This document shows positions 45,541-64,000 of a stretch of DNA of 64,000 nucleotides, piece by piece. Position 1 is the stretch's first letter; every line of letters starts with the position of its first letter. Under the pieces are notes generated by a model that was not told where the DNA came from, searched no databases, and saw only the letters and a list, made by a program, of their open reading frames with translations. The stretch comes from Escherichia phage vB_EcoP_SP5M: sequence record NC_070869.1. One strand, written 5' to 3'. The translations under genes were made by a program, and so were the position numbers.

Positions 45541-45578
45541 TCAAAAAGAAACGGCCCACGGAGTTACCCCAGTGAGCC
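45541..45578 (-). terminator. terminator-like hairpin
   Basis: Stem CGGCTCAC/GTGGGCCG (minus sense) followed by TTTCTTTTTG. Confidence 0.4.
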
Positions 45579-45600
45579 GTGTTGAACTGTAGCTTATACG

Positions 45601-46242: not shown

Positions 46243-46309
46243 ATTTCCTGTGGTTCAACTAGTTTTGTTAAGAGGGGGACTTATGTCCCCCTTACTTTAT
46301 TTAGGACTA

Positions 46310-47512
46310 TTACAGAGGAGCAACAGTCTTAATCAGAGCCAGACGTTCTGGACGTTTAACCAGAATACCGTAGTACCACTTGATGGAACTGAAACCAGTC
46401 TCGCCATACGGGTCATTACGGTCAGCAGTTTCTCGACCAGGCATCTTAGTCATGATGGAGAACTTAACAGACTTACCATCAGTCTGGAAGCCAATGGTAG
46501 AGAAGGAGTCATCACCAACTACCAGCATCGGGAATACGTCGTAGTGTTCTTGACCACTAACCATAGAAGAACGGTAACCCGGGTTAGAAGAGACTTGAGC
46601 ACCAGCACCTGCCCAATGCAGCATCTCCGGAACCTGAATAATACGGAACTTGTCGATACAACCGACTTCACCGTTCATCAGAGTACCAGCATCAGCATAG
46701 TGCTGAACCTCGATGAATGCTTTGTTACCAAACAGGTCTTTCATCGCTTTCAGTTCTGGAACCAGTTCAGAACCAACGTACATTACGCGAGTACCACCAA
46801 GTACTTTGGTATCAGTCAGCTTAGAACCAGTGATGATAGTAGTCTGGGTCGGAGTACGGTTCTCAGTAAGAATCTGGTCAAGACGCATCAGGTTCTTATA
46901 AGAAACTACAGACGGGGTAGAACCTTCACCAGTGATGGTAGCATCAGAGGTAGCAGCACCTGCATACAGTACAGTACCTGCAGCAGCCAACAGGTCTTTC
47001 TGGAGAACAGCTTCAGTCAACTGTACAGCACCGTTCATCAGTTCACGAGACAGGTGTTCTTTCAGTTGGTCATCAGAATCAAAGTCCAGGGACTCTTGAG
47101 TAAATTCGTAGAAGAAACCGAACTTATGGATGGAACCTTCGCGAGACAGACGGGTAAAGCCTACACGGTTAACACGACCACCGTTCTCTGTCAGCAGAGG
47201 CAGTTTAGAGGTAATGTTACCGACGTCTTTAGAAGAACCATACAGGTTACCATTAACGATGGTAGCACCGTTGGCATCAATACCCTGGTCGTTGATGTTC
47301 TTATCATCAAGCAGTGGAACGTACTCGTACACCTTAACAGTCTTACCGTAGTTCTTCGGCATGTTGATGGTGTTAGCCAGTGGCATGAAGTACTGATCTT
47401 TACGAGACTGAATAATAGCTTTCTTCAGCCAGTAAAAGGTATTCATCTGGTCGGAACCAGCACCATCAATGCTAGATTTCTGACCGTCAACTGGAGCGTT
47501 ATAGTTTAACAT
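46310..47512 (-). CDS. major capsid protein (by size and position)
   Basis: 400 aa ORF between scaffold-like acidic protein and downstream hairpin; size matches N4-type major capsid proteins; no motif recognised, call is positional. Confidence 0.6.
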
Positions 47513-47528
47513 ATCATCTTATTCCTGT

Positions 47529-48749
47529 TTAAAGACTACCCGGTACTGGGAGTTTAGCGAAATCTTCATCACTCATAGCGAGTGGGTTTACAATAGGTGT
47601 TGCTTTACGTGTAGCAGCCCGACTTAGGGAAGCTGCTTTAGCTTGCTCACTGTTAGCCAGGGTCTGCTTAGGTTGTGCTACACGCACTACCGGCTGAACC
47701 ACTGGTTTAACTGCTTGTACCGGTTCAGGCTTAGCCACTCGGTTAAATGCCCCTTGTTGTGCAAGAAGGTTACCGACGTGGTTATAAGCCTGAATGAACG
47801 GAGTACCAACCGGAATCTGACCTAACATCTGAAGACGATTCACTTCATTTGCAATGGTGTCATAAATACCATTCTCACGTTGTTCGTGAATAGTCTGGAG
47901 TAGTCCACGATTCTGGTAAAGAGCATCTTTACTGGCAGCATCCCATGTCGAGCCGATAACACCTAATGTAGCTTGTCCTTCTTGAGTAGACTTTAAGTCG
48001 TCAATTTCGGTTGCAAAATCTGCTTCGGTGTCGGTAACACGGTGATTGCCACCCTGGTAGTTAATTTCCTCATCTGGATTAAAGTCCAGGGGGTCTGTAC
48101 CAGAGTCTTTGAGCAACTTCTTAATGGCTTCAGGATTCTTTTTATCCAGGTCAATCAGGAAAGAAAGTTTATCCTCATCCATTAAACCGTTGTTCTGTAA
48201 CATCAGCATTACCTTACGGTAAGGCTTTAGTTCTTGCATCTTACGAGTATAGTTAGCACCCATCTGCATCAGGCTAATGGCCTCCTCCGGTGAACGGGGA
48301 GTAATCACTTTGCCGTTAGCTTTAAAAGGAGCCATCAACTTCTCGTAACCTTCCTTATAGTTGAAGTCAGCAGGCAGACCTTCAGACTGTTTGCCTTCTT
48401 CTTCCTGTTCCTGGCCTGGTTCAGTAGTAGAAGGTTCAGCTTTAGTAATCGGCTCACCGTTACTATCAACTTCTGTGTCAACAACTTTATCATCAACTTT
48501 ATCAGAAGTTAAAGGATTTGCTGAATCTTCTTCATCTGGTTCGGCTTCAGGGGAGGTTTCTTCGGTTGGTAGGTCTTCAACAGCAGGGGTGGCAACTTCT
48601 TCTTCAGGAGTCTGTACGCCGTTGGTTTCTGGGTTGTTCTGAGTGGAAGTGTCTTCCTCAGCGATAATTGCTGGGGCTTCCATATTCAGAATCTCATCAT
48701 CCGACATTGCGAGAATGTCGGAAGCTGTGGTTGCAGCTTCCGTAGTCAT
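47529..48749 (-). CDS. scaffolding-like acidic protein
   Basis: Very acidic, low-complexity N-terminal half (E/D/T/P-rich) followed by helical region; located between portal and capsid genes. Confidence 0.45.
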   Translation of the reverse strand: MTTEAATTASDILAMSDDEILNMEAPAIIAEEDTSTQNNPETNGVQTPEEEVATPAVEDLPTEETSPEAEPDEEDSANPLTSDKVDDKVVDTEVDSNGEPITKAEPSTTEPGQEQEEEGKQSEGLPADFNYKEGYEKLMAPFKANGKVITPRSPEEAISLMQMGANYTRKMQELKPYRKVMLMLQNNGLMDEDKLSFLIDLDKKNPEAIKKLLKDSGTDPLDFNPDEEINYQGGNHRVTDTEADFATEIDDLKSTQEGQATLGVIGSTWDAASKDALYQNRGLLQTIHEQRENGIYDTIANEVNRLQMLGQIPVGTPFIQAYNHVGNLLAQQGAFNRVAKPEPVQAVKPVVQPVVRVAQPKQTLANSEQAKAASLSRAATRKATPIVNPLAMSDEDFAKLPVPGSL

Positions 48750-48768
48750 AGGAAATATCTCCGGTTAA

Positions 48769-49113
48769 TTATTCGTCTTCAGGCTCAGCACGAACTGCGT
48801 CGAGTTCTTCTTCTACCTGTAGAATAACGTCAGCCTCGTTTTCGCCCATACGAATGGCGAGGTCGAGCCAACGACGTAAATGACCAGCAGCTTGAGCCAT
48901 GTTCAATGCATCTGCACGGTTATTGGCTTCAAGCAGTGGGTCACCAGACTCTTGCACGTAACGTGCACAATCTTCCGTACAGAACTGGCGAAGAATTACT
49001 TTACGGAACAGTGGATTCTCCAGAAGTTTACGTACATCTTCTGCATGTGCAACTACACCTTTAGCAGCTTCTAGTCGATGTTCCAGTCCAGCGATTGTTG
49101 ATTCTTTACTCAT
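48769..49113 (-). CDS. hypothetical protein
   Basis: ATG start; 114 codons between portal and scaffold-like genes. Confidence 0.45.
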   Translation of the reverse strand: MSKESTIAGLEHRLEAAKGVVAHAEDVRKLLENPLFRKVILRQFCTEDCARYVQESGDPLLEANNRADALNMAQAAGHLRRWLDLAIRMGENEADVILQVEEELDAVRAEPEDE

Positions 49114-49126
49114 GTGAAGGTCTGCC

Positions 49127-51397
49127 TTACAGGTTCATGCCAAGAGCCGATGCTGGATCTTGGCTAGGGTCATAGTATTGGGAACTAAGTGAATAAGCTG
49201 GGTCTTGTTGAGCAGCTAAATCGCGTTCTGGTATTGAGTTCCCATCAGTCAAAGTATTATATCCAACAGCAGCAGATATGTTGGGGGTAGTTTCCCCTTC
49301 TTTAATAGGTGTTGTCAATGCCTTAGTTATTTGAAGGTTCTGGTTTCCTTGAGATTGTGCTTTTTGTTTTTCCATATCACGAGCATGTTTAGTACCAGAT
49401 TCCTGTTCCAGATAATCCAGGTCTTTAAGGTCACCACTAGAAGCAGCCTCTTTAGCCTTAGCCATATTGAGTGCAATCTTACTTTGCAGCTCTTCATTCT
49501 CAAGCTGTGCTTTCTGAATTGCCAATTGCTTAAGCTGTTCTTCCATAGGGTCTGGCTGTGGTCGCCAAGTACGTAACTCATGAGCCAGGTCAGGCATACG
49601 TTTAAGTTCTGCAATCTTAGCTACAAGAGATAGCGTAATAGTTTGGTCAACCGTATTACCTAGTGTTTGAACCATGAAGCTCAAATCCTGAGACTTCTGG
49701 TTATCAATTTCAGCAGTGTTAATATCAACCTCAATGTCGAAGTTACCTTTAAGGTCTTCACGGTTAATCTCTACATACTGCTCATTAGTAATACGTACTA
49801 CTTCCTTCTCAGATAAGAACACAGCATTCATTGCACAAATCTTAGTACCAATGTCTGCCATACCTTTAGCTAATCGGCGAAGGATTGCCATCTCACGTTT
49901 GGATGCTGCATCAAGTGCACCACGAATACCAGCAGCCACGTCACCATAAGCAGAACCAGTTACACCACCGGAGAATGCTTTAACACCAGTTAGTGATTCT
50001 GCTTCCTGGTTTTGCATCTGGGTCATTACTATTGCCGACTGAGGTAATTCAGGGAACTTATGTTCCATAATAGCCTGACTAGGATTGCCCTGCATTGGGT
50101 TGTATTCATAGTCTTGCCCATCGTCATATCGACGACGGTTTAGTGTATCCAGCATCCCTTTAGGATAACCACGTTGACCATTTGCACTACGACCCAACAG
50201 GTCAATCATCCCACGCATAGTTGCACCAAGAATCGCTTGGTTATCCCCTAAAAGTTCAGCATCGGCTTCACCAAAGAGTTCACGCTTACGTGGCATGTAA
50301 GGAACAACTACCAAAGGTAACTTACCATCAGGGAATGGGTTCTTCTCCATACGAATAAGAGTAGAACCAATCCAGGTAGCAACAATAGGTTCCAAAGAAC
50401 CATCATCATTGATGTCGTAAAATCCCCAGTATTCATAAGCAACAACTTTCTTACGAAGTGCATCCTTAAACTGGAAGTCGCTTGGAGTTTTACTCTCATG
50501 GTCTGGGTCAGTCATAGGACTGGAGCTTTCCCAGTCAATCTTATCTAAGTTGTGATATAGATCCTTGTTCTTCATGAGGTCTGCTTTGCATGTCTCAAAG
50601 GAGATAACTGCATACAGAGCCTTATCCAAATCACCATTACAGCTTGGATCAATAACTACGTTATTAGGATTAAGCATTTCAACGGTAGGTCTGTTAACCA
50701 GTGCCTTCTCTACCTCTACTTCAGTAACTCCTGTCTGTATTGCATAGGTAGCTTCTCCAGTTTCATTGAAGTAGTTAACAGCTTCCTTAATATCTTCAGG
50801 CATTGTTTCGTCGTACTCACGAGGATTCTCTGCCTGAAGTTGTAAAGCCTGTTGAAGAACATCTGCCTGTTCCTGGTTCTCAATTGGATACAACTGGAAG
50901 ACCGGTGTTTCTGTTTTAATTTTAACAGTCTTACGTTCCCAGCCAATACGAGCAATACCAGTACCGTCATCTACGACACTGTGTACGTAATCATCCACCA
51001 GTTTTACTTTATTAAGCTGGGTACGGAATTGGTAGTTAAGAACTAATTCATTCTGTCGTGCAGCTAACTCATCTTCAAAGGTAACAGGAGTTACTTTAAA
51101 GAGTTTATTAGATGAGAGGAACGGCTCAGACAATGGAGCATACCGCCACTCTGCCTGACGGCGAACCAGTCTGGGTTGGACTTGTGACCGTCCTTTAACC
51201 TTTGGGGGTTTAGCTTTACCCTTGACTTCCATCAGGTCATTCCACTCACGAATCTGTGCCATGATTGCTTCGTGAGCAGGTTTAGCTGATTCCAAATCAC
51301 CCTTCAGTAATTGGATACTTGGTTCCTTCTTCCAGTCCGTTAGCTTCTCTGATTGAGCCGGGTCAGGTAAAGGCTTAAAAGTGTCTTGGTGTTCCAT
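49127..51397 (-). CDS. portal protein (by size and position)
   Basis: 756 aa from ATG 51397 (track start 51403 is TTG); size matches N4-type portal; lies upstream of the scaffold/capsid genes. Confidence 0.6.
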
Positions 51398-51405
51398 AGT
51401 CAATC

Positions 51406-51906
51406 CTATTCAAAAAGTTTACGGTCAGCCTGAATTTGTTTACCCAACTCAACTAGTTGGTTGTCACGGAGTCTAACAGTTGCCCGGAGTTCTTCAACCA
51501 AACGTCTGCCTTCTTCAAGACTACTGTCGAGTCTGGCTGCATGGCTTGCAAGACTTCTGCACTCAAGGGTTCCGGCTTCGGCTTGACGTTTATATACCGA
51601 TGCTCGTCTTTCAGACTGTTGCATCCGGCTGTCGTAATCACTGCTAACGCGAGCAAGCTCGCTTGCGTAATTACTCTCAGCCATCTGCAACCGGGAAGTA
51701 AGTAACCCGACTTCATAACTATGGTTTCTTTGGAGAGCATTGTATTTGTCCTGTAGTTTTTGTGTTGCCTTCAGGTCTTCGACCTTTTGGTCATCCCATT
51801 TCTTTTGAACAGTAGACTGCCCATTGGAATTGCCCCAAAAGTAAATGGTGGCCCCGAGGACCACCACCAGAAGATAAGGCCAACCTTTAGAGATTAGCAT
51901 CTTCAT
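51406..51906 (-). CDS. i-spanin (Rz-like)
   Basis: ATG 51906 with GGAGG RBS; N-terminal TM segment [16 protein letters not shown] followed by coiled-coil-like charged region; adjacent to endolysin. Confidence 0.55.
51453..51740 (-). CDS. o-spanin (Rz1-like), embedded in the i-spanin gene in another frame
   Basis: Lipoprotein-like signal ending in lipobox-like TAGC ([12 protein letters not shown]); short Pro-rich mature part (KPKPEP); fully nested in the i-spanin ORF. Confidence 0.5.
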   Translation of the reverse strand: MLSKETIVMKSGYLLPGCRWLRVITQASLLALAVITTAGCNSLKDEHRYINVKPKPEPLSAEVLQAMQPDSTVVLKKADVWLKNSGQLLDSVTTN

Positions 51907-52522
51907 TACATGCCTCCAGTGGCACATTACCGATTCGGTTAGCTACCCAACCATACGTAAAATCTGGCATGTTCAATGAGGTGTAGTGGTTCAGTTGTTT
52001 AGCATCAAGTAACTTAATCATTACCTGACATGCTGCAACTTTGCCTCGTTTTTTCTGTAATGCTTTATATGCATTAACAGTACCTGCACCGACTTTACCA
52101 TCAACTTGTATTTTAGGGTAGTCTTTGCCATCACGGGACATTTCATTAAGGGATTGCTGCAACCACTTAGCTGGTCTGATTACACCGGTATTAACACCAG
52201 CATCAACCAGTTTGTGTGTTACAGCAGGAGATATATCAGTGAAGGCTACGAAGTTAGGCTTAAGTACATAGTCATCAATGTATATCTCAGCAGCCATCTC
52301 TTTAGATAAACCCTTCATGGAACCATCCCAACCATATTCAGCAGCCAGAACTTCTTTATGAGATTTAGCTACTGATTGAGTAATACCATGATTAGTTTCC
52401 CCACCTGGGTCACGCGGATTGTTTACATACCCTCCTTCCATATAGAACACTGCCCCCAGAATAGCAGCGACAACTCCTCCCACTGCACCACCTTTTGCAG
52501 CAAGTTTTTGTTTAGCTTTCAT
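51887..52522 (-). CDS. endolysin, GH108-type N-acetylmuramidase with N-terminal signal-anchor
   Basis: EGGYVNNPRDPGGETNHGIT matches the GH108 signature; N-terminal hydrophobic segment GGAVGGVVAAILGAVF suggests a SAR-type anchor. Confidence 0.7.
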   Translation of the reverse strand: MKAKQKLAAKGGAVGGVVAAILGAVFYMEGGYVNNPRDPGGETNHGITQSVAKSHKEVLAAEYGWDGSMKGLSKEMAAEIYIDDYVLKPNFVAFTDISPAVTHKLVDAGVNTGVIRPAKWLQQSLNEMSRDGKDYPKIQVDGKVGAGTVNAYKALQKKRGKVAACQVMIKLLDAKQLNHYTSLNMPDFTYGWVANRIGNVPLEACNEDANL

Positions 52523-52772
52523 GAGAATCTTCCTTTGGATGGAATCGTATTAGTCTGCCTACAATGTTTAAGGCAAACAGTGCGATTGTAATGCTGGAAC
52601 CATGTGGGATATCTTCAAGGATATGACGAGGCAGTCCCGTCAGCATTGGTTGGATAATATCTACAGCAGAAAACAGAATTAACCCAAACGTGCTAATCTG
52701 AACAGATGCCCACTTCCAGGATTTCTTCCAGTTAGGTACTAGCCCTATCTTTCTTTTTAGCCTGCAAACCAT
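52512..52772 (-). CDS. holin-like membrane protein
   Basis: ATG 52772 with GGGAG RBS (track start 52838 is upstream); two hydrophobic segments; immediately upstream of endolysin. Confidence 0.5.
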   Translation of the reverse strand: MVCRLKRKIGLVPNWKKSWKWASVQISTFGLILFSAVDIIQPMLTGLPRHILEDIPHGSSITIALFALNIVGRLIRFHPKEDSHES

Positions 52773-53089
52773 GCGAATATCTCCCGTCTTGCAGCAGCCA
52801 ATACACCAATAATTGCACCTGCTCCAGCCCACACCCACTTACCAAAAATCCCAGCACCAGCAACTTTATGTTTAATGGTGATGAACTCTTCGATGGTAGG
52901 TTCAGACTTAGTGATGCTCTCCTCTACCCGTTTAAGTCGGGTACTAAGGTCGCCCATAGACTCACTTAGCTTTTTAATAGACTCTTCCATTTTCTCCCTT
53001 TCCCTCGATTCACGAGTTTGGTTTTCGAAAATGTTTCTCAGTCTCTCTTCAAGTCTGGCTAGAGTTACGTTATCTGGTTCATTTCCCAT
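52757..53089 (-). CDS. membrane protein with coiled-coil region and C-terminal TM segment
   Basis: Charged helical N-terminal region and C-terminal GIFGKWVWAGAGAIIGVLAAA; first gene of the lysis cluster. Confidence 0.45.
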   Translation of the reverse strand: MGNEPDNVTLARLEERLRNIFENQTRESREREKMEESIKKLSESMGDLSTRLKRVEESITKSEPTIEEFITIKHKVAGAGIFGKWVWAGAGAIIGVLAAARREIFAWFAG

Positions 53090-53298
53090 AGGGACTTTCT
53101 CAGGTTAGTTAAGTCATAATTGACTAAAACAGTCTACCTAATGACTTGTTTGTGGTACAACAAAAACCCTCCCCAACAGTCTAGCTGGGCTGGTTAGTAC
53201 CTAAAATATTGAACAATAAATCTGTCTACAACAAAGCCTACAAGGAGGCAATGAGCCACCGATGGACTTCGACGACGACATTCCGTTCTGATGAAGAA

Positions 53299-53314
53299 AG
53301 GGCCATGCGGCCCT
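53299..53314. terminator. hairpin in the 338-bp intergenic region, possible terminator
   Basis: Stem AGGGCC/GGCCCT with ATGC loop; T-rich on both flanks. Confidence 0.35.
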
Positions 53315-53426
53315 TTTGATTATGATGATAACAGCTCTATAATCTTTTTAACCAGTTCAGCCACGTATCTGAACCAGATTACAAATGGCGGTTCGGTCGG
53401 TTCTGTTTCACCTTCTATTTTCACCC

Positions 53427-55445
53427 CTACATTGATGGCAGTAGAGAGACATTAACATCTCTCACAAGCCCATCAACACTAGTTAACACAACTGAGATGT
53501 CACCAGTTGAACTATTAATAGATAAGCTAACAGTAACCCCTGTTCCAGAAAGACCAATCCTTCCAGAGCTTGCGACAATTCCGCTGGTGATGATATCAAG
53601 ATAGAAATTGGTTTCGTGCCTTATCCCTATAGGTATTTTTATATAATCACCTTGTGCAGTATTGCCAATTCTGCACTCAATCAATATGGCTCTGGTGACG
53701 TATGTATCATATAAATCTTGCGCAATATTGGGCTTAGTGAATGATAACGTTGCTCCCACAGTGGCTGGTAATCTACCTGATGACTGTGCACCAATAATCC
53801 GTCTTCCTTTGATAACCTGTGACATTCCAACATTTACATCATCATCCATACCGAGATTTCCGGTTATAGCTTTATTTAATGTAGGAGCCTTCTGGTTAAG
53901 TGCCGAAGTAACAAAACCGGTCATATCACTTCCAGATATCAGGAGTGTCCCATTACCAGAGCCAAGAACCGATACGTTAAACGATGGAGAATTTGTCCCA
54001 CCCTGACCCCACTCTTTAGCTCCGTTTCGGGTTCTCACCCCAGAGATTACTATTTTACCGTTATCAATAATAACAAAGTTTGCTGAGTAGTTATCATTCA
54101 TTGGTTGATTAGTACCACTGCGAGCGACGACAACTCCGGTTACAATCCATGACGAATCCTTGCCAGCAACTACCCCTCCTCGTCCAGCCCTGTCGCACAG
54201 TTCACCTGAAATCTGGTTTTCTATTGATTCATACGCATACCAGTTATCACCAGCGTTCCATTCGTTACGGCATCCCCCGAAAAAGTTACTATTTGCCCCA
54301 CCGACAAGAGCTACGCCTCGGTCATTGGCATTGATTGTGCAACCAATCATCATAGAGTCTATTAAATTTTTAACTCCGTCCCCATTTCCAGATAGTGAAC
54401 AAAAGTGTGCTTTCACTGTTGCGATGTATCTTGCTGATCCTTCCTTATTCCAACCAATACCAATAGCAAAACGGTAAATCCCGCACCCTTCAAGTCGAGT
54501 ACCGTTGAACTCGGTAGATTTATCTGCGGAATAAAAAAGATACGTTGTTTTATCTCGACCATCAAAAACAATATCCCGGAACACATGACGACCAGTTGAA
54601 TAAAACGGAAAGCTTGCTCCAGCTGCTACACGGATAACGACCCCGCAATTAAGGAAGCTACTGTCATCTGATACAGTGTATGGTCGACGACATCCCCACC
54701 CTATAAGTGAGAATCCCAATGGAAGCGTAGCGGGATCGCTACCAAGTTCAATAATCCCCAGGTTCCTCGGTATATCAAGGACCATAACTCCTGCAGCTAT
54801 AGCTGCTTTTAACGCATAGTCCGCTGAGACTACTGCTCCAGAAGTTGTAAGTAATGCTTGTTGATCCGATTCGGTAAGGTATTCAAAAAGTGACGCACGA
54901 ATGATTCTGTCCAGAGGGGAGGCGTTCCGGGACACCATTGACGCCCCTGTTTCAGAAGACATCTCCTGCCTAAGCGTTGCATCACCAACACTAACCCACG
55001 CATTAGGGCTAACACCACCGGTTGATGTAGGGGTTGAACCAGCAGGAACTACCTTAGGTAGTACACCATCCCAACGGTATTTACCACCAGCAAAAACAAC
55101 CAGTTCATTCTTAGTATTAACAGTTACTCCAGTATTAAATGAACCAGGTAAGGTTACATATTCCTCACGAGTAACAGCTAGTGCACCTAAGTCCACACTA
55201 CCGGCAGAATGTACCAACACACCAGCAGGGCTAAGGCTTACAGCAGTCACCCCTGAACCAATGTCAGCAGGTAAGGAATAAGCACGCTGTGTCACTTTGT
55301 CATAGATAACTTTATAGCCAGTAAGCAGAGCACCAACTGAGAAATAAACAACTTCGGATTGCTTAACTCCAAAGTGACGAGCTATCACTTGTTTATTAGT
55401 CTGTTTTGCTACCGGGCCTGTTGGCTGGGTAAACATCTTATTCAT
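53427..55445 (-). CDS. tail fibre / tailspike protein
   Basis: 672 aa, Gly/Ser/Thr/Val-rich beta-type composition; ATG with GAGGA RBS; adjacent to second tailspike gene. Confidence 0.5.
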   Translation of the reverse strand: MNKMFTQPTGPVAKQTNKQVIARHFGVKQSEVVYFSVGALLTGYKVIYDKVTQRAYSLPADIGSGVTAVSLSPAGVLVHSAGSVDLGALAVTREEYVTLPGSFNTGVTVNTKNELVVFAGGKYRWDGVLPKVVPAGSTPTSTGGVSPNAWVSVGDATLRQEMSSETGASMVSRNASPLDRIIRASLFEYLTESDQQALLTTSGAVVSADYALKAAIAAGVMVLDIPRNLGIIELGSDPATLPLGFSLIGWGCRRPYTVSDDSSFLNCGVVIRVAAGASFPFYSTGRHVFRDIVFDGRDKTTYLFYSADKSTEFNGTRLEGCGIYRFAIGIGWNKEGSARYIATVKAHFCSLSGNGDGVKNLIDSMMIGCTINANDRGVALVGGANSNFFGGCRNEWNAGDNWYAYESIENQISGELCDRAGRGGVVAGKDSSWIVTGVVVARSGTNQPMNDNYSANFVIIDNGKIVISGVRTRNGAKEWGQGGTNSPSFNVSVLGSGNGTLLISGSDMTGFVTSALNQKAPTLNKAITGNLGMDDDVNVGMSQVIKGRRIIGAQSSGRLPATVGATLSFTKPNIAQDLYDTYVTRAILIECRIGNTAQGDYIKIPIGIRHETNFYLDIITSGIVASSGRIGLSGTGVTVSLSINSSTGDISVVLTSVDGLVRDVNVSLLPSM

Positions 55446-55537
55446 GGGTTAATCCTCATGTTGTAGTTTGATTTAGTACTGCTTATTAGTAAGTAAGCCC
55501 CACTTATGTGGGGCTTTTCAAAAATTCACTACAAGAT

Positions 55538-55819
55538 TCAGCTAATAGTCACCCCATTATCAATAAGGTACTTAACTAAACCATCTGCATCCCCAGTATA
55601 ACTAGCAATTAACTGTTGCAGATTCTTTTCAGTACTAGTTTCTGAAATAGGAAGTAAATCGGCTTGGTCAATCTTTAGACAATAGCCATTGTTAATGTTT
55701 TCTATAACGCATTGGTTACTATCTAACCAACGCACAATAGCCCCCTCAGAAGCATAGCTAACAACATTTCCAACTACTAAGGCCGACTGACCGTCCCAAA
55801 TGTTTTCATTTAACATCAT
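55538..55819 (-). CDS. hypothetical protein (possible tail fibre accessory)
   Basis: ATG 55819 with GAGGA RBS (track start is TTG); 93 codons between the two tail genes. Confidence 0.4.
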   Translation of the reverse strand: MMLNENIWDGQSALVVGNVVSYASEGAIVRWLDSNQCVIENINNGYCLKIDQADLLPISETSTEKNLQQLIASYTGDADGLVKYLIDNGVTIS

Positions 55820-55827
55820 ATATTTCC

Positions 55828-58617
55828 TCAAGAAGATGCGATACTACCATAAGTTAACCATCCAGATGCAGTATAAACTATCCCCTCAGCACCCCCTGCT
55901 TGTGGTCGAAGATAGGGTACTTTCTCCCCTTGGACTGGCTTATAGGATGCATAGATATTGGCTGCGGTGTTTATCTCAGAGCTATATGTCTGTGCCCAAT
56001 CATTTCCAGAAATGAACCAAGGCCCGCTCTGAGAATACATTGTGAACATCTGCCGAGTTGCATTATCTGTGCTATTCCCACGGCATTCTAGTACTCTCGC
56101 CCCAGACACACCATCAAAAAGAGTGAAACCAAATGTAGCACTACTATCACCAACAACCCGGTTGTTAAGGATCCGAGTGTAAAAGCACGTACCAAATGTT
56201 TTGATTATCGGGATGCTCTTCGTTCTCCCCGCACCAGTCACCGCATCATAGTTTACGATGTTGCCTTCGATGACCGTTCTAGCAGCCTTTGACAAGAAGA
56301 TTATCTGATCTTCGTCATCAGCATTATATTTTGTAATCCGGTTCCTGCGGATAGTGCAGTCATCCGCCGATGCCACTTGGATTACTAATCCCTTATTATT
56401 AGTGGGGTCGGTAGCTGTGTTATCTTCAACTATACTGCCAGCCGATGCCAGATATAACTGAACCCACCCTTTGAAAGTATTGTTACGTATTACAGGGTTG
56501 ACCAGCTGCACTGACATACGAACTGTGGTGCTTTTATTTTCTACGAAGTTAGCTTCCATCACCACCTTCGAACAATTGGTAATACGCATGGGGACTGTCT
56601 GTGTGCAATTTTCAGACAACAGGAGCTTGTTTCCTCTCATCTCCAACAAGTCTACATTGAAGGAAGTCACCGAGTTTATAAACCTAGCTGACCCTGTGAT
56701 CGTAAACTGGTTATCATCAATTGTGGCGTAAGCCTTACCAATGGAAATGCAGTTATACGCAGCCGAGTAAACATAGTTTTGAGCTACATACTGACGGTGG
56801 TCTTGTGCAGATGATGCCCACCAAGAAAGCTGAATTCCACCACGCTGCGATTCAAATCCATTCTGTGGGCATTTTTGTAAATCAGCCTGTAATCCATTGA
56901 TGTAGTTGCCTACAACATCAGCTGATGCCTGAACAGATACACCAATATAATGATTTAACAAAGTATTATTCAGAATTCGAACTGAAGTAGCTGCCTCAGA
57001 CTTCACTGACATGGTGTAACCCCATACGAGGTTGTCCTCTATAGTTACATAGGTTCTCTTGTCAGCGGAAGAATCTGACTGCCATTCAAAGTCCGGTGGG
57101 TAGATGGTGGAAGTACCCCCATTACTCCCGTACTCTGCGAAAATACCTATATACCCACAAAGAGTACCGTTATACACCACGTTATTATTAGGGGATTTCA
57201 ATGCTGGATCACATACGAAAACACGCTTATTAATCGCAGTATTACGTCGGATAATCGTTTTCGGGCTTGCACCAGACCAGATAGCCCAACCAAAGTGATC
57301 GACAGACTCATTGCCACTGGAACCTAAAGGTTGGTTAGCTGAAACGTTGTACAGATAATTGTTCTCTGCCAGAGCCATAGAACATTTCCAGAACTGGATA
57401 CCTGAGCCATAAATCTCGTTCATCCTAACATTTCGTACTACTGGCGAACGGCAGTAACTAAAACGCAGACCAAGAGTGCCATCCGAATATGGTGTAGGAT
57501 GCGCCCCTACCCCCATCAGCTCATGGGTAGGCCCACCTTTGTTAGCTTGACGGGTATAGTCAATAGTGAGATTTTCAACAGTTACTGGCTCCACAAAGAC
57601 GCCTTGTGTGGTCGGCTGTCCCCCAAATTCAACAAGGAACGGTTCACTGAACGGCCATGACGCACCGGGGGCATTAGCAACTGGATCAACGTTATCGAAT
57701 GTCCAGGTGGTTCCGCCATCGGAACCTTTGATAGTACAAGGTTTACCATTATAGATAGCAAATTTATGGCGAGTAGTTCCCCAATTCACCTCACCTTTAG
57801 GGAACACTAGCGTTCCACCATTCTGCATAATATATTCAATAGCCGCCACACATGCATAACCACAGGCAACACCATCCCCAGTCACGCCGAACTCAGTAGC
57901 ATAAACTATAGCGTTACGCTTTAAGGCATCCTCTACCGTGATACCGAATGATGTACCAATGTTAGAAGCCCCGTCGGTTCCTTTAAGTGCAGCAAAAATA
58001 TCGATATCCATGTCTGGGTCAGTGATGCCAATAATCACTGTAACCAAGTTACCAGTCTCTAACTCGTCAGCAAGGGTAATAGTTGCATCACCCTCATTAT
58101 AAGTAAAACCTTCATTGAGGTCTTGTCGAATGCCTTGTACATAGATGGTTTGTACACCAACAATTGGCAAATCTGTAGGTAACTGAATAGTAGTCTCACC
58201 ATCAGTAACTGCATGGTATTTCCAAATACGAACAAACGAAGCGTTGGAACCAGTGGCTTTAGTACTAACCCAAGAACCAGTAGCACCGGGTTCGTTAGGC
58301 TTAATACCACTAGTATCATCATCTACATAAAGGTAGTCAGTGAAGTAGTAACCTGCCGTCTCTGATTTATTATAAATACGAGCAAACTTCCCAATAGAGA
58401 GTGGAATGTCCTTGATTGCTTCCTCACTATCTACAGTAATAATCAGGCCATACTTTTGTAGGTAGTTATAGATGTAAGTAAGGTTACCCAGTGCAAGGTA
58501 TACCTCCTTTACTACGTGGTAGGCATCACCAATGATTCGGTCAACCAATTGATCACCAGACCGAAAGTCATTAGGGCAACCATTACCGCCTGTGTTAAAT
58601 GGGTTATGAGAATTCAT
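55828..58617 (-). CDS. tailspike with pectate-lyase-like beta-helix (putative polysaccharide depolymerase)
   Basis: YATEFGVTGDGV resembles the FGAxGDGxTDD signature of pectate lyase 3-type beta-helix tailspikes; 929 aa from ATG 58617. Confidence 0.55.
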   Translation of the reverse strand: MNSHNPFNTGGNGCPNDFRSGDQLVDRIIGDAYHVVKEVYLALGNLTYIYNYLQKYGLIITVDSEEAIKDIPLSIGKFARIYNKSETAGYYFTDYLYVDDDTSGIKPNEPGATGSWVSTKATGSNASFVRIWKYHAVTDGETTIQLPTDLPIVGVQTIYVQGIRQDLNEGFTYNEGDATITLADELETGNLVTVIIGITDPDMDIDIFAALKGTDGASNIGTSFGITVEDALKRNAIVYATEFGVTGDGVACGYACVAAIEYIMQNGGTLVFPKGEVNWGTTRHKFAIYNGKPCTIKGSDGGTTWTFDNVDPVANAPGASWPFSEPFLVEFGGQPTTQGVFVEPVTVENLTIDYTRQANKGGPTHELMGVGAHPTPYSDGTLGLRFSYCRSPVVRNVRMNEIYGSGIQFWKCSMALAENNYLYNVSANQPLGSSGNESVDHFGWAIWSGASPKTIIRRNTAINKRVFVCDPALKSPNNNVVYNGTLCGYIGIFAEYGSNGGTSTIYPPDFEWQSDSSADKRTYVTIEDNLVWGYTMSVKSEAATSVRILNNTLLNHYIGVSVQASADVVGNYINGLQADLQKCPQNGFESQRGGIQLSWWASSAQDHRQYVAQNYVYSAAYNCISIGKAYATIDDNQFTITGSARFINSVTSFNVDLLEMRGNKLLLSENCTQTVPMRITNCSKVVMEANFVENKSTTVRMSVQLVNPVIRNNTFKGWVQLYLASAGSIVEDNTATDPTNNKGLVIQVASADDCTIRRNRITKYNADDEDQIIFLSKAARTVIEGNIVNYDAVTGAGRTKSIPIIKTFGTCFYTRILNNRVVGDSSATFGFTLFDGVSGARVLECRGNSTDNATRQMFTMYSQSGPWFISGNDWAQTYSSEINTAANIYASYKPVQGEKVPYLRPQAGGAEGIVYTASGWLTYGSIASS

Positions 58618-59321
58618 ATCCATCCTCTTCTTTCAAATAATGTATTTGTGCTTGACTCACTACTGCTTCCTAGGTCGTAGTCCTTAACCTCTCCACAGAT
58701 TGATTCGTACATTTGCAGGTACTCTGCTGCTTTGCCAGTACTCTCGGCAGTATTGAGTCCAGTGTAGTAACTATAAGCTACCCAGTACTTTAAAGCAGGC
58801 AGTAGGGTATCAGGTAAATCAATCTCCTGATTCTCACCATCCACAGTAACAGTTGGGTGTTTCGCTTGATAGGTTACCGTAAGTACTTCGCAATGACGAG
58901 GACGAATACACTGTAATGTATCAGGGCGTGGAGTAAACAATCCATGTGGATTGTGATTATCATTCAGCCCACGTCTTTGCCCTTTTGAATCATACACCAT
59001 CAGGATTTTAATGACGTCTTCTTTAAATGGGTTACTAGCAGAATCCATAATGAACGGGTATTGTGCTAGAGCAGGGTCGAATCCCATAAAAGAATAACGA
59101 GCTAGTAAAGGGTATTCTGTTCTGCCCTCACGCATCTCAACGAATACATTGCGTGTCTTTAATGGGAACCGTCCATGTAGACGGGTCAGACCCTCATTAA
59201 TAAACTCGAGGATGTACTCTTTCTTATCTGGCTCAATGTCTTTCTTGTCATCAGTTATCACACTGGTGTTATTCAAGACAGACAGAGCCAGACTCTTATA
59301 TAACTCTGTTAATTTAATCAT
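58614..59321 (-). CDS. hypothetical virion/tail protein
   Basis: ATG with GAGGAAAC RBS; sits between terminase and tailspike genes. Confidence 0.45.
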   Translation of the reverse strand: MIKLTELYKSLALSVLNNTSVITDDKKDIEPDKKEYILEFINEGLTRLHGRFPLKTRNVFVEMREGRTEYPLLARYSFMGFDPALAQYPFIMDSASNPFKEDVIKILMVYDSKGQRRGLNDNHNPHGLFTPRPDTLQCIRPRHCEVLTVTYQAKHPTVTVDGENQEIDLPDTLLPALKYWVAYSYYTGLNTAESTGKAAEYLQMYESICGEVKDYDLGSSSESSTNTLFERRGWI

Positions 59322-59327
59322 GTTTCC

Positions 59328-60917
59328 TCACACGATGTATGAACGCAGTGGATTAACACTTTCTTCCTCTTCATCATCCCACATCGGGTCACCCTTGTTA
59401 TCCACCATGGTCATACCTGCTTGTGGTTTCCAAGGATTGAGATAACCCAGCATGGAAATAGTATCAATACAGTCATCCTTACCTTTGATTCCATTAATGG
59501 TAGCTAGTTTAATCTGGCCTATGAACAGACCCATGATAGTTGTATCTCTCAACTCTTCCGGGAAGTACATCTTACCAGCTTTGAACCAAGGAACTACCAG
59601 GTTAAAGCGTGACAGCTTAGAGGTTACAGGACGGATGCCTGGCTTACCACCCTCAGAGGTAGCAAAGTTAAAGAAGACATTACGGTTAATCATTTCTTTC
59701 TGAAGGAGTGAGATGAATCCATTCTGTTGTCCTGTAATTTCGACACCAACATTTTGTGGTTGGTATTCCTGAACCAGACGGAACAAGTCGTCGAAGTTCT
59801 TGTCCATAAGCTGACGATTAGCCACACCATCAACCCAGAACCAATCTCCATTAGAACTGTAAGCCCAAACTGATATGACACTGTAGTCACTGGTCTGTTT
59901 CTCCGAAGTAGCAAAGTCAGTTGTAATGTAATAGTTGTAGCAGGACTTCATCCTTAATAGTTGCTGCCTGCTGTACCATTTAATCTCACTATCCTGAACA
60001 AGACGTTCATCTTCAGAACTAATACGAAGCATAAGTTCTTGGTAGAAACCAGCCAACTTACCAGTCTTAACTGCCATATCGTATTGTGCTTTGATATAGT
60101 CATAGGAGAAACGGTCATCCCATGCACCCTGAAACTCTTCCCTACTACAAGGAAACTTCTCACACACAGGCCATACGTTGACATCCCATGCACCAGACTC
60201 AACTGCTTCAATGATAATGTCTTCCTTATTAAAGGGAGTACCGTTGAAGATTACTTTACGACGTGTTGGGTCGAGAGCATGGTTCACACCTTTATAGACA
60301 GTATCCTTAATAGCTTCCATGCTTGTCTTAGAGTTAGCATCACCGTCACTAATCAAGTCATCCAGTACACATAGTGTTGGACGCTTACCATATATCTTCG
60401 TACCACGAAGACCTGTCTTAGCACCAAATAACTTAACACCAAGTCGATGACCTTCTGCATTACGGAACTCTAACAGGTTATCCGTAAAAGTAGCTTCAGG
60501 TATCCACTGCTGAAGGAACTCACTATTCTTGTAACGGAACTCAATGTTCTTACGTGCAGACTTAGCACCGTTATCCATTGAGTCAGATACGTAAATCATT
60601 CCCTCTACCTTACCTAAACTAGGTAAGTGTCCAAACACTGCCAAGAATAAAGTAAAGTATTCCATGAACACAGCAGTCTTACCTGCACCACGGAAACACA
60701 GATTAACTACATACTGGTTCGGGGTAATCATCTTGTCCAACATCTTCAGGTGAACCGGAGGTGTTTTGTTGGATTCACCCTCTTTGCCATTAACCAACTT
60801 AATAAAGTTGGCAAAGGTAAGAGCAAACTGACTAGGAACATAGTTAGAAGAATTAAGGTGGGAGTAGTCCACCTGGTCTAGCCATTCATCTAGTTCCTGT
60901 TTAATTAACTCAGACAT
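59328..60917 (-). CDS. terminase large subunit
   Basis: Walker A CFRGAGKTAV, Walker B-like CVLDDLISD; start set to ATG 60917 (ATGTCTGA overlap with upstream stop; track start is GTG). Confidence 0.8.
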   Translation of the reverse strand: MSELIKQELDEWLDQVDYSHLNSSNYVPSQFALTFANFIKLVNGKEGESNKTPPVHLKMLDKMITPNQYVVNLCFRGAGKTAVFMEYFTLFLAVFGHLPSLGKVEGMIYVSDSMDNGAKSARKNIEFRYKNSEFLQQWIPEATFTDNLLEFRNAEGHRLGVKLFGAKTGLRGTKIYGKRPTLCVLDDLISDGDANSKTSMEAIKDTVYKGVNHALDPTRRKVIFNGTPFNKEDIIIEAVESGAWDVNVWPVCEKFPCSREEFQGAWDDRFSYDYIKAQYDMAVKTGKLAGFYQELMLRISSEDERLVQDSEIKWYSRQQLLRMKSCYNYYITTDFATSEKQTSDYSVISVWAYSSNGDWFWVDGVANRQLMDKNFDDLFRLVQEYQPQNVGVEITGQQNGFISLLQKEMINRNVFFNFATSEGGKPGIRPVTSKLSRFNLVVPWFKAGKMYFPEELRDTTIMGLFIGQIKLATINGIKGKDDCIDTISMLGYLNPWKPQAGMTMVDNKGDPMWDDEEEESVNPLRSYIV

Positions 60918-61599
60918 CTGTAATGTCCTCATCTGCACGTACTAGTTTAGAACCAGCAATCTCTTTAGTGGGTACACCACTATTGATTGCATTAATTTGC
61001 TGTTCGGCTAATGCAGCAAGTGTTGCCTTGAGGTCAGTCAACCCGGAGTTCTCCCTTAAGTCCAGATTAATATTCGTTACCTGGTCTTTCGGTTTAGCTA
61101 AATGAGTAAGGATAGAGTTAGCTGCATCACATCTTACTTTCTCACTAGCTGCTGTAGTCATCAGTTCAACCTGAACATTGATTGCCTTCTGATAATTGTC
61201 TTGGTTCACAATCCACACTGGAACCAAACTTTGTTCCATGATGAGGTTAACTAACTTACCCCTGTGATAAGCAGATACATAAGCACTAATATCTTTCTCA
61301 CTGGTTCCTCGTGCTATAAGTTCTGCTTGTCGGTTAGGGAATGTTTTGAAGTAGGCTTCCTTATTTGAATAGCCCATGTGTTTGTAAGTGACATACTGAA
61401 CTGCATTCATGTAGTCCTGTGTCTTAAACTTACCCTCCTTCATAACACCAGAGTAAGAGATGAAGTTTTCACGGAATGCTTCAGCAACTAGTTGGTCTTG
61501 GGTTATGTTGTTAATTGTGTCTACCAACTCTTGGCTAACACTGTTCTTGAAGTTAGCAGGTAAGGCATTAATGATCTGCTGCTTAGTTAGCTCACTCAT
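60910..61599 (-). CDS. hypothetical protein upstream of terminase (possible small terminase subunit)
   Basis: First gene of the minus-strand late block; product assignment positional only. Confidence 0.4.
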   Translation of the reverse strand: MSELTKQQIINALPANFKNSVSQELVDTINNITQDQLVAEAFRENFISYSGVMKEGKFKTQDYMNAVQYVTYKHMGYSNKEAYFKTFPNRQAELIARGTSEKDISAYVSAYHRGKLVNLIMEQSLVPVWIVNQDNYQKAINVQVELMTTAASEKVRCDAANSILTHLAKPKDQVTNINLDLRENSGLTDLKATLAALAEQQINAINSGVPTKEIAGSKLVRADEDITDV

Positions 61600-61782
61600 A
61601 CTTATCTCTCTACAAAGTTATGTCTATTAACGAAGATTCTTTTCTTGGGGTGAGATACCCCTTGAAGAAACCATACCATACAGTTACACTTTAGTCATGA
61701 TATAGAAAAAGTTCATGATACTAAATAGTATGTAATGTTCCGATGACCTTATTCCCCAAGGAGTACTACCTTGAGACTCTTT

Positions 61783-62061
61783 ATGAGATGTCTAGACTCT
61801 GAAGATAAATACGCAGAGATAGACCACACAGCATCAGGATTCCTGAAGGGTGACATCATTGTTACCCACAACTGGGATACATTCCATGAGTTGTCTGGAA
61901 TGATGCTATTAGAGAACCGTCCCGGTGTTACCATCTTAGAACCACAAGAAACTTACTCTTTAGAAAAGTCTAGTTCAGCTCTTGTGTTCTTTACAAAATT
62001 ACCTCATAGTGTCTCCATCAAACGAAGCAAAGACAGCGTTCGGATGACGGTGACGATGTGA
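61783..62061 (+). CDS. small protein, member A of HE-G-LFL paralog family
   Basis: ATG 61783 (track start is TTG); motif WDTFHELSGMMLLENRPGVTILEP shared with three downstream genes. Confidence 0.4.
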   Translation: MRCLDSEDKYAEIDHTASGFLKGDIIVTHNWDTFHELSGMMLLENRPGVTILEPQETYSLEKSSSALVFFTKLPHSVSIKRSKDSVRMTVTM

Positions 62062-62209
62062 TTAGTCATACCGCCTAGTAGACAGTGGCGGTACTCGTAA
62101 AGAGTTAATAACTTCTACAGTCAGGGTTACCCGGCTCCTTTCCTACCTAGTAGGCTAACGATACACATGTATCTAGGGTGATGAACTGGCCCGTGATTGA
62201 AAACGGTAA

Positions 62210-62245
62210 GGGGTAGAGTCGAGAGACTCTACCCCATTTCTTTTT
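62210..62245 (+). terminator. Rho-independent terminator
   Basis: 11-bp stem GGGGTAGAGTC/GACTCTACCCC, loop GAGA, followed by ATTTCTTTTT. Confidence 0.85.
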
Positions 62246-62261
62246 CTGGGGGTATGTAATT

Positions 62262-62660
62262 ATGAGCATCTACTGTTTTGACATTGATATTACTGGTGTA
62301 CTACGCGGTCAAGAACCCAATTACCTTGGGGAACCAGAAGTAGTAAGTAAGTTCATCGCTTCATGGCAATCAGTATTCTTACCTGATTGTGACGAGTCTC
62401 ATGAGGTTATTGGCTCTCTTTTCTTATCCAACCTTCAGCTTAACACTGAGATACTTACTGAACCAAAAGTATATGATCTCACTCAGTACAGCAAGTTCAA
62501 CAAGTTCTTCCCCGGTGTACGCTTCTATAAGATAGATGGTTGGGAATTGATAGCTGACCATAACGTATTTAATAAGACACTTTCCATTTACTTCAGACCC
62601 ATTCCTAAAGGAAGGAGAATCAATCATGAAATTCATAATGACTATCCCCAGTTTTGTTAA
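62262..62660 (+). CDS. small protein, member B of HE-G-LFL paralog family
   Basis: ATG with GGGGG upstream; motif CDESHEVIGSLFLSNLQLNTEILTEP. Confidence 0.5.
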   Translation: MSIYCFDIDITGVLRGQEPNYLGEPEVVSKFIASWQSVFLPDCDESHEVIGSLFLSNLQLNTEILTEPKVYDLTQYSKFNKFFPGVRFYKIDGWELIADHNVFNKTLSIYFRPIPKGRRINHEIHNDYPQFC

Positions 62661-62940
62661 AGGGGAGTCCATGTACACAAATGACTTCACTTTAGAAGAG
62701 GTCATGAATAGTAGCCCCCAACGCGTAATCCTGGTTCCTACCTTAGAGGATTATCACGAAGTAAGAGGTCAACTTTTCTTAGCAGGTAATGACCGTAAGG
62801 TTGTATGTATTGTCCCACCTTCCGTCTACTCCTTTAGCGATGCATATGACGCTCTACCTTTCATGATGGTATCCGATGAATACCAATGGGATAGTCGCCA
62901 TGAGAATGACGAATACCGTTACTATTACGTAAGGAAGTAA
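62626..62940 (+). CDS. small protein, member C of HE-G-LFL paralog family
   Basis: Strong RBS AAGGAGGAG; motif LEDYHEVRGQLFLAGNDRKVVCIVPP; overlaps gene B by 35 nt. Confidence 0.5.
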   Translation: MKFIMTIPSFVKGESMYTNDFTLEEVMNSSPQRVILVPTLEDYHEVRGQLFLAGNDRKVVCIVPPSVYSFSDAYDALPFMMVSDEYQWDSRHENDEYRYYYVRK

Positions 62941-62943
62941 GCC

Positions 62944-63258
62944 ATGCACTTCTACGGTTTAAGTAGTCGTAGTACCTGTCCCCTTAATCTGGGGGTAGGT
63001 AAATCTCCTTGGTTGGGAATAAGTAAACCCATGACCATGTACTATGAACAATGTGAAAAAGCAGATGAGTTCATCGGAACCTGTTTAATGTTAGGTGCAC
63101 CTATTACCTTTATTAGGATAGATACTTCCATTGAAGTTCCGGAGGGTGTCGCTGTATACATCTTCTCCTCCTGTGAACCTATGGTAGCTACTACTCTTAC
63201 AGGTAGACTCATTACCCTTTATCCTTCCTCATATTTATCTAGCGACGAGAGCTATTAA
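62944..63258 (+). CDS. hypothetical small protein
   Basis: ATG with AAGGAAG RBS; 104 codons; family motif not evident. Confidence 0.45.
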   Translation: MHFYGLSSRSTCPLNLGVGKSPWLGISKPMTMYYEQCEKADEFIGTCLMLGAPITFIRIDTSIEVPEGVAVYIFSSCEPMVATTLTGRLITLYPSSYLSSDESY

Positions 63259-63542
63259 TGGTTATCAGTAAAATTTATTCAGAGCTACCCGGGGATGAAT
63301 ACACCCATCATAAAGATGTAGCTAACCTAGATGCATATGTACTTATCCTGGTTCCAGATGAACAGTCCTTACATGAACTACAGGGCTTACTCTTCTTACA
63401 CAATAAGAAATCCGAAGTACATCTGCTTGAACCAGGAACACCAATGTCCTGGCAAGGTAGCTTCAGTCCTTGGCATCTTAATACAGACAAGTACATCCTA
63501 TCCTTCGAGGGTAACACCCCCATCTATAAGGAAAGACAATGA
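63258..63542 (+). CDS. small protein, member E of HE-G-LFL paralog family
   Basis: ATG overlapping upstream stop; motif DEQSLHELQGLLFLHNKKSEVHLLEP. Confidence 0.5.
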   Translation: MVISKIYSELPGDEYTHHKDVANLDAYVLILVPDEQSLHELQGLLFLHNKKSEVHLLEPGTPMSWQGSFSPWHLNTDKYILSFEGNTPIYKERQ

Positions 63543-63581
63543 AACTAAACATCCCCCCATATCTGGTACAGGTACTGAAGC

Positions 63582-63920
63582 ATGAACGTTAAACTCTTAG
63601 GTATGCGTGGTACTGACTTACTGCACTACTCTTCTGAACCAGAGAAAGCAATCATCCACCTTATGTCCTATGGGGATTCCACACTAATAATGGAACCAGG
63701 AGAGTTAGCAGACTTTGCACAAGGACATAAGATTCTTACTAACAGCAATGCAAAGATAGTTATCTTGCAAAATGGTGAGTCAGCCTTCATCTTATTAGGT
63801 GATTATGCTCATGTGTTTATTAAAGATGCTGCCGTAAGACATAGTAGTGGTAACCCTAACCATCCTGACTATTACTCTGGCATAGCTCGTATTATCACCC
63901 GAATCTCACCTCCTATTTAA
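63582..63920 (+). CDS. hypothetical small protein
   Basis: ATG start, 112 codons. Confidence 0.45.
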   Translation: MNVKLLGMRGTDLLHYSSEPEKAIIHLMSYGDSTLIMEPGELADFAQGHKILTNSNAKIVILQNGESAFILLGDYAHVFIKDAAVRHSSGNPNHPDYYSGIARIITRISPPI

Positions 63921-64000
63921 CTGCTTATATGTGAGATAGTTATGATATTTTTGCATACCAATTTGGTCATAGCTATGTCTAGCTGTAGTGGTGTGGCTAG

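Follow-up and report, generated by a model that had tools for sequence, protein, structure and literature searches.

Two tailspikes, probably branched, with catalytic domains of Klebsiella-phage type in the mosaic host-recognition module of Escherichia phage vB_EcoP_SP5M

The stretch of DNA considered here comprises 64,000 nucleotides of the genome of Escherichia phage vB_EcoP_SP5M (NC_070869.1) and is in the following called the window. Its positions 53427-58617 hold the host-recognition module of a G7C-type (Gamaleyavirus) N4-like podophage, which is heavily reshuffled and otherwise ordinary (Table 1). The module encodes two different tailspikes of 929 and 672 amino acids (aa), which very probably form an anchor-branched pair, in which the long spike would be fixed to the tail and would carry the short one; the cutting domains of both were borrowed from Klebsiella phages. 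This reading draws directly on the gene structure, on homologies, on the fold, on the mosaic breakpoints and on an isolation host shared with another phage. SP5M (MT682708, 72,896 bp) is from Portuguese sewage and has as host the swine enterotoxigenic E. coli (ETEC) field strain SP36 (PMC7471389). Positions 44000-64000 of the window, taken as reverse complement, agree at 100% over 18,463 nt with the assembly of SRR12228468, the sequencing run deposited for this phage. The genome has been deposited and briefly announced; an earlier analysis of its host-recognition genes was not found in the literature. The initial annotation of the window had recognized two different tail fibre or spike genes, and both open reading frames (ORFs) are indeed there as described, on the minus strand. 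That both products are tailspikes is borne out by matches to PHROG tail-spike/tail-fibre families (E 1e-51 to 1e-142) and to Pfam Tail_spike_N and Beta_helix, while NCBIfam yielded nothing meaningful for either of them or for a 93-aa protein encoded between them.

The 929-aa protein is a tailspike of the gp66 class. In the mechanical ORF list it has 931 aa, counted from an upstream ATG; an independent gene call on the same DNA likewise gave 929 aa. The start codon belonging to this length overlaps the stop codon of the preceding gp67-like gene as ATGA, the same as in G7C, and the two genes are translationally coupled via this overlap. Residues 1-197 have as matches in the PDB (phmmer) gp49 of Shigella phage B2 (9d83_D, E 2e-36) and gp82 of phage Moo19 (9d80_D, E 1.5e-33). 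The N-terminus is 37% identical to residues 1-203 of G7C gp66, and at its very beginning, over ~45 residues, it is similar to the N-terminus of N4 gp66 (32% identity in an alignment of 105 columns, E 7e-8). The N-terminal module is present in 101 phage records, and those listed with residues 1-196 are all N4-like genomes of 68-76 kb, with a gp67 homologue adjacent wherever annotated. The anchor region is followed by a single T4-gp10-like XD domain, which is acidic (isoelectric point, pI, of 4.25 by charge calculation) and which matches residues 259-334 of CBA120 TSP4, that is XD3 (7rej, E 0.004), residues 189-289 of Kp9 gp42, and the families phrog_9383 and phrog_17312. In the AlphaFold2 (AF2) model, strands at residues 114-198 form a beta-sandwich.

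The 672-aa protein is without a gp66-type tail anchor. Its first 170 residues have as matches in the PDB CBA120 TSP1 (4oj5, E 1e-68), G7C gp63.1 (4qnl, E 1e-67) and B2 gp48 (9d84_A, E 2e-61); Pfam PF18668 (Tail_spike_N) is found with E 2e-22, and residues 1-165 are 70% identical to residues 1-165 of gp63.1. This head is basic, with a calculated pI of 9.2. The N-terminal homology to the gp63.1/TSP1 head led us to reject the 672-aa protein as an anchored spike. The initial annotation had put it forward as a second fibre or spike candidate; a second beta-helix spike it is, but one whose docking site is most likely on the 929-aa protein and not on the tail.

The pieces needed for a branched appendage are known from better studied systems. 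According to the published accounts of phage G7C, gp63.1 binds to gp66 and not to the particle, the N-terminus of gp66 serves as its anchor, and the binding requires one of the XD domains of gp66 (PMC6872550; PMC8825819). In CBA120 the basic head of TSP1 binds to the acidic XD3 of TSP4, the two being complementary in charge, and gp48 and gp49 of B2 co-purify and were solved as a complex (PMC11654681). With respect to charge, the SP5M XD domain (pI 4.25) and the 672-aa head (pI 9.2) compare with pI values of 4.05 and 5.11 for the two XDs of gp66 and 9.2 for the head of gp63.1. Because SP5M has the same pieces with the same electrostatics as the G7C and CBA120 systems, we infer a branched appendage, and with it the physical docking, the activity of these two proteins and the glycan cut by each. 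A trimer of the 929-aa protein would attach to the tail via its N-terminal ~110 residues, would present one acidic T4-gp10-like XD domain after the anchor, and would continue C-terminally as a trimeric right-handed beta-helix that binds and cleaves K51-type capsular polysaccharide. The basic head of the anchor-less 672-aa trimer would dock on this XD domain, the two spikes thus forming, by analogy, a physical complex, and each tail appendage would carry two different glycan-degrading spikes facing the cell. Both enzymatic domains were acquired by recombination, at linkers that directly follow the conserved N-terminal modules.

The catalytic part of the long spike is, as judged from homology, a member of the K51 depolymerase family. 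Residues 215-929 are 91% identical to PWKp5 UJD04933.1 (DpoK51-5) and residues 226-928 are 47% identical to PWKp9B UJD05002.1 (DpoK51-9B), both of which are experimentally active; the identification of UJD04933.1 as DpoK51-5 agrees with the published values of 46.55% identity and ~78% coverage, which were reproduced (PMC12671143). Purified DpoK51-9B degrades K51 capsule only, and purified DpoK51-5 from PWKp5 is active on K51 capsule (PMC12671143). A further homologue of the helix domain is found in vB_Kpn_K51PH129C1, from a collection of phages which were isolated on K reference strains and whose names include the K number, K51 in this case. Residues ~236 onwards are modelled by AF2 with confidence (predicted local distance difference test, pLDDT, mostly 80-97) as a long right-handed parallel beta-helix, the fold of pectin-lyase-like tailspike depolymerases. 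The beta-helix that had been anticipated is therefore predicted, and the assignment of the protein as a putative depolymerase-type spike is upheld by its likeness to the active K51 enzymes. Also with a K51-type domain (90%), in this case on a 924-aa protein, is the unclassified Klebsiella phage P19-618 (PQ133600.1, 76.8 kb), in which the upstream region and the 5' end of the next gene are like their counterparts at the 672-aa gene, pointing to a further two-spike module of like design in another backbone.

The initial annotation had also ascribed to the 929-aa protein a pectate-lyase-like signature. A motif of the FGAxGDG type at the start of a right-handed beta-helix is a hallmark of the Pectate_lyase_3 family. 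In the 929-aa protein the sequence FGVTGDG occupies residues 243-249, at the first rungs of the beta-helix and, in the AF2 model, directly before a helix at residues 253-266. In all six frames of the window there is one occurrence of the pattern FG[AVIS]xGDG (by chance, ~5e-4 would be expected in the 929-aa protein), and F243, G244, V245, G247 and G249 are invariant across 17 homologues with identities down to 29%. Also invariant in this alignment are the acidic residues E437, D440, D470, E495 and E541, which on this basis are candidates for a part in the cutting chemistry. Pfam Beta_helix passes its threshold, but Pectate_lyase_3 (PF12708) had no match at E<=10 with either the whole protein or residues 226-430 or 226-929, although the HMMER speed filters may hide very weak matches. 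The motif and the likeness at the level of the fold are thus real: the protein has a pectin-lyase-like fold, yet lies outside Pfam Pectate_lyase_3. We read the motif as a structural N-terminal signature of the fold; it is no known catalytic signature or site and no evidence for lyase chemistry. We consider it possible, though not probable, that the protein cleaves polysaccharide by beta-elimination as a genuine lyase of the pectate-lyase-3 type, which is what the motif had suggested in the initial annotation.

The body of the short spike is assigned, again by homology, to the KP32gp37/Kp9gp42 family. Residues 160-569 match Kp9 gp42 (7xy1, E 7e-41), a trimeric beta-helix spike of solved structure which has no known substrate and which is a relative of the K3 depolymerase KP32gp37; the body also matches phrog_6518 (E 6.5e-142). 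Over residues 102-672 the protein has 90% identity to the sole tailspike of the T7-like phage vB_EcoP_SP7, which was isolated on SP36, the same strain as SP5M (PMC7471389). By tblastn the relatives are SP7 and Klebsiella phage SEA1f (94%), SBP (91%), SF_KL25 (66%) and K25PH129C1 (47%). With respect to K type only weaker links to K25 phages were found, at 47-66% identity. The isolation of SP7 on SP36 is the best available evidence for recognition of the SP36 surface glycan by the 672-aa domain, and because the receptor-binding domain is shared with a phage isolated on this strain the 672-aa spike is a likelier determinant for the host SP36 than the K51-type spike. The latter would probably add to the host range K51-like capsules, whether on Klebsiella or on E. 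coli with a capsule of Klebsiella type.

It should be considered, however, that one of the two spikes might be a non-functional passenger on SP36, left over from a Klebsiella-infecting ancestor, with only the other spike mattering for host range. All of the nearest homologues of the catalytic domain of the 929-aa protein are from Klebsiella phages, SP7 infects SP36 with the 672-type domain only, and the nearest relative of the backbone, K57alpha1.2, was isolated on a Klebsiella K57 strain. On the other hand, the 929-aa gene is intact and translationally coupled to the upstream gene, and the invariant residues of the family are conserved in its product. Moreover, at least the N-terminus of the 929-aa protein should be indispensable, because the anchor and the docking domain sit there. 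We consider it possible, though not probable, that one spike is such a passenger. It may also be that SP5M crosses genera and can infect K51 Klebsiella in addition to E. coli SP36.

Several points weigh against the reading of the module as an anchor-branched pair with two glycan-degrading spikes. The anchor region of the AF2 model is of low confidence (pLDDT 25-45). The 929-aa protein has one XD domain, whereas G7C gp66 has two, and its XD aligns slightly better with the first XD of gp66 (BLAST score 63 versus 57), whereas gp63.1 binding was mapped to the second. An identity of 91% is no guarantee of the same capsule specificity. Neither catalytic domain had a megablast match (~>=85% nucleotide identity) in 5,426 complete E. 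coli genomes, and there is therefore no independent sign that E. coli carries matching glycans. Experiments on the SP5M proteins were not found in the literature. The single XD, with its ambiguous correspondence to the gp63.1-binding XD of G7C, would also allow that the two spikes are independent receptor-binding proteins, each directly on the tail as alternative or parallel fibres without branching, but this is very unlikely given that the 672-aa protein has no gp66-type anchor, that over the first 165 residues it shares 70% identity with gp63.1, a protein that does not attach directly to the G7C particle, and that the homologous pairs B2 gp48/gp49 and TSP1/TSP4 form complexes.

Table 1. Features and mosaic segments in and around the host-recognition module of SP5M (positions in the window; percentages are identities to the genomes named).
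Feature	Position	Strand	Remarks
gp63-like gene	52757-53089		
Gamaleyavirus backbone	up to 53212		94%
End of ssb gene (last ~24 codons)	53220-53291	+	canonical SSB tip ...NEPPMDFDDDIPF*; from translation
GC-rich hairpin downstream of 672-aa gene	53297..53317		AAAAGGGCC-GCAT-GGCCCTTT; read from sequence
Segment like SBP, SP7 and SEA1f	53297/53400-55079		90-91%
672-aa branch tailspike (gp63.1/TSP1 class)	53427..55445	-	
Second beta-helix receptor-binding and putative depolymerase domain (KP32gp37/Kp9gp42 family)	53430..54950	-	residues 166-672
TSP1/gp63.1-type head	54951..55445	-	residues 1-165; proposed to bind the XD of the 929-aa protein
Segment with gp63.1-type head	54969-55400 (PhAPEC7); 55098-55400 (G7C)		82-84%
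Segment like Taipeivirus PWKp5	55393-57975		88%
Perfect 9-bp hairpin between 93-aa ORF and 672-aa gene	55495..55516	-	AAGCCCCAC-ATAA-GTGGGGCTT; read from sequence
93-aa ORF between the spike genes	55538..55819	-	ribosome-binding site GAGGAA
929-aa anchored tailspike (gp66 class)	55828..58617	-	anchor, XD docking domain, K51-type beta-helix
Right-handed beta-helix catalytic and receptor-binding domain (putative K51-type capsule depolymerase)	55831..57912	-	residues 236-929
Motif YATEFGVTGDGV	57868-57903	-	residues 239-250; N-terminal end of beta-helix
Segment like K57alpha1.2	57995-59500		92%; Kpn16-P2 from 57927, 80%
Single T4-gp10-like XD beta-sandwich	58018..58281	-	residues 113-200; proposed docking site for the 672-aa spike
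N-terminal particle-binding anchor region (gp66 class)	58282..58617	-	residues 1-112
gp67-like virion structural or adaptor protein, 235 aa	58614..59321	-	Pfam SU10_adaptor 4e-11; phrog_2125 2e-88

The order gp63, spike, spike, gp67 and terminase is common to SP5M and G7C, and the gp67-like gene has the position of gp67 in both G7C and N4. Between the gp63-like and the gp67-like genes there are only three genes, for the 672-aa, the 93-aa and the 929-aa proteins, all on the minus strand and none of them gp64- or gp65-like, whereas in N4 this slot holds gp64, the gp65 sheath and gp66. The suggestion that the module had been exchanged relative to N4 was thus correct: gp64 and gp65 are absent, and a gp63.1-type and a gp66-type spike occupy the slot, as in G7C.

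The module lies in a backbone which, at positions 30000-53000 of the window, is 94-96% identical to Gamaleyavirus (G7C-like, N4-like) genomes, e.g., K57alpha1.2 and PhAPEC7. The backbone is itself a mosaic: at the nucleotide level the identity to PhAPEC7 is 94% over most of the late region, but only 70% over the segment with the anchor and gp67. By protein-level grouping this segment is of the KP8/IME11 type, the anchor being 84-94% identical to those of the KP8, IME11 and BaqKoxi group versus 36% to that of PhAPEC7. Besides the K51-type domain, the PWKp5-like block covers the 93-aa ORF and the hairpin after it, and it reaches into the 672-aa gene, of which it holds the first 17 codons. The junctions lie at linkers just after conserved N-terminal modules, which is the expected mode of receptor-binding domain exchange. 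The relatives of the catalytic domains are almost all found in Klebsiella phages (Taipeivirus, Drulisvirus, Kayfunavirus, Jedunavirus, Webervirus and jumbo types). With respect to the Klebsiella phage vB_Kpl_K57alpha1.2 (OY979416.1) it should be noted that the deposited annotation seems to be out of register with the sequence. For example, the stretch matching gp67 and the tail protein's N-terminus is labelled 'DNA polymerase', and a virion RNA polymerase/structural stretch is labelled rIIA, thymidylate synthase etc.; the product names of this record are therefore untrustworthy.

At the other end of the module, downstream of the 672-aa gene, there is a remnant of an ssb gene, which is 92-95% identical at the nucleotide level to the 3' ends of ssb of coliphages and Shigella phages, and 84-85% to those of KpV2811 and YX3973. 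In the KpV2811 annotation ssb adjoins a tail-fibre gene. The GC-rich hairpin next to the remnant is likely a bidirectional terminator, and in PhAPEC7 one is annotated at the corresponding site. Taken together, the remnant and the hairpin have the appearance of a recombination scar that was brought in with the catalytic cassette of the 672-aa gene, in an arrangement like that of KpV2811.

Overlooked in the initial annotation was the 93-aa ORF between the spike genes, whose product is 100% identical to SP5M_0078. The protein has no family match in Pfam, PHROG or NCBIfam and no fold match, and its family is small, with 7 clusters among 5.8 billion cluster representatives and 7 matches among 1.8 billion representatives. 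Every member whose context could be seen is encoded 9-27 nt downstream of a K51-type depolymerase gene. These members are from SP5M, PWKp5, eight Drulisvirus-type records or contigs, two lambdoid-type contigs and one fragment, and the linkage is thereby found in four unrelated backbones: N4-like, Vi1-like myovirus, KP34-like podovirus and lambdoid siphovirus. In a lambdoid contig the depolymerase domain is 86% identical to that of SP5M, the small protein only 44%; the linkage is therefore not simply that of one block inherited intact. KZag1 and P19-618 lack the ORF through an indel of ~310 nt, and tblastn did not find it in KP2025, OU509535 and phiKp_21. An obligatory chaperone was ruled out, since recombinant DpoK51 enzymes are soluble and active without the small protein (PMC12671143), and since five phages with depolymerase domains of 88-92% identity lack the ORF. 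Only tentatively can the ORF be proposed to encode a previously unrecognised functional partner of K51-type depolymerases, e.g., an accessory, assembly or regulatory factor.

The C-terminal, helical residues 58-85 of the 93-aa protein resemble a ~28-residue unit (…NPGKSAEELLAxYxGKEDxLIKNL…), which recurs in 6-10 copies within each of two long repeat proteins, P0075 (1033 aa) and P0078 (375 aa), both of unknown origin. This could be a shared helical-hairpin motif or a chance resemblance. The hairpin between the 93-aa ORF and the 672-aa gene, which has no T-run and was missed by the terminator scan, is possibly a weak terminator, an attenuator or an RNA-stabilising element.

The module determines which bacteria this ETEC phage can attack. 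SP5M is a coliphage with two domains of capsule-depolymerase type, which are otherwise in circulation among Klebsiella phages belonging to at least five morphotype/genus groups. It is predicted that the 929-aa protein strips the K51 capsule, which is found on the high-risk K. pneumoniae lineages ST16 and ST231, and that the 672-aa spike defines infection of the swine ETEC host. The breakpoints at the linkers are natural, ready-made junctions for swaps of receptor-binding proteins in N4-like phages. The understanding of branched tailspike systems is unchanged by the SP5M module; its interest rests on the borrowing of domains across genera, on the testable K51 prediction and on the unexplained linked 93-aa ORF.

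Compared with known systems, the module belongs to the G7C-type anchor-branched class. All defining features that can be tested are present, namely an N-terminus of the anchor class, the ATGA overlap with the gp67-like gene, an XD after the anchor and an anchor-less second receptor-binding protein with a gp63.1/TSP1 head, although with one XD instead of two. In the G7C system (Prokhorov et al. 2017; PMC6872550; PMC8825819), gp66/gp63.1 occupies the same slot between gp63 and gp67. The anchors are homologous (37%) and are followed by an XD, the head of the second spike is of the gp63.1 type (70%), and the charges are complementary in the same way. G7C gp66 differs in having two XDs and an internal gp63.1-like head before the body, whereas the 929-aa protein has one XD and no such head. 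The distal domains of both SP5M spikes differ from those of G7C, being of the beta-helix depolymerase type, whereas that of gp63.1 is an SGNH esterase; and SP5M has the extra 93-aa gene between the spike genes, which G7C lacks.

The best solved-structure matches for both N-terminal modules are B2 gp49/gp48 and Moo19 gp82 (PDB 9d80-9d84; PMC11654681). In B2, a phage of the Schitoviridae, gp48 and gp49 are a co-purified two-protein spike; gp49 has 410 aa, and its match to the anchor-XD module of the 929-aa protein covers residues 15-191. The spike preparations of B2 and Moo19 exhibited esterase activity (PMC11654681), unlike the beta-helix depolymerase type of SP5M. TSP1-TSP4 of CBA120 (Ackermannviridae) have in common with the SP5M spikes a TSP1-type head (PF18668), which in CBA120 docks on an XD3-type gp10-like domain, and modular beta-helix spikes; however, CBA120 has four spikes on a myovirus baseplate and SP5M two on an N4-like podovirus. 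With DpoK51-9B and DpoK51-5 the likeness is in the catalytic beta-helix, homologous from end to end, and in the same small downstream ORF; the attachment modules differ (Drulisvirus and Taipeivirus types versus Gamaleyavirus gp66 type), and the DpoK51 phages were isolated on K. pneumoniae, SP5M on E. coli. With N4 itself, SP5M shares the N4-like backbone and the likeness of the first ~45 residues of the 929-aa protein to the N-terminus of gp66; it differs from N4, in whose record the gp65 sheath is annotated as the receptor-binding protein, in being without homologues of gp64 and gp65 and in having spikes of the glycan-degrading type instead of the sheath.

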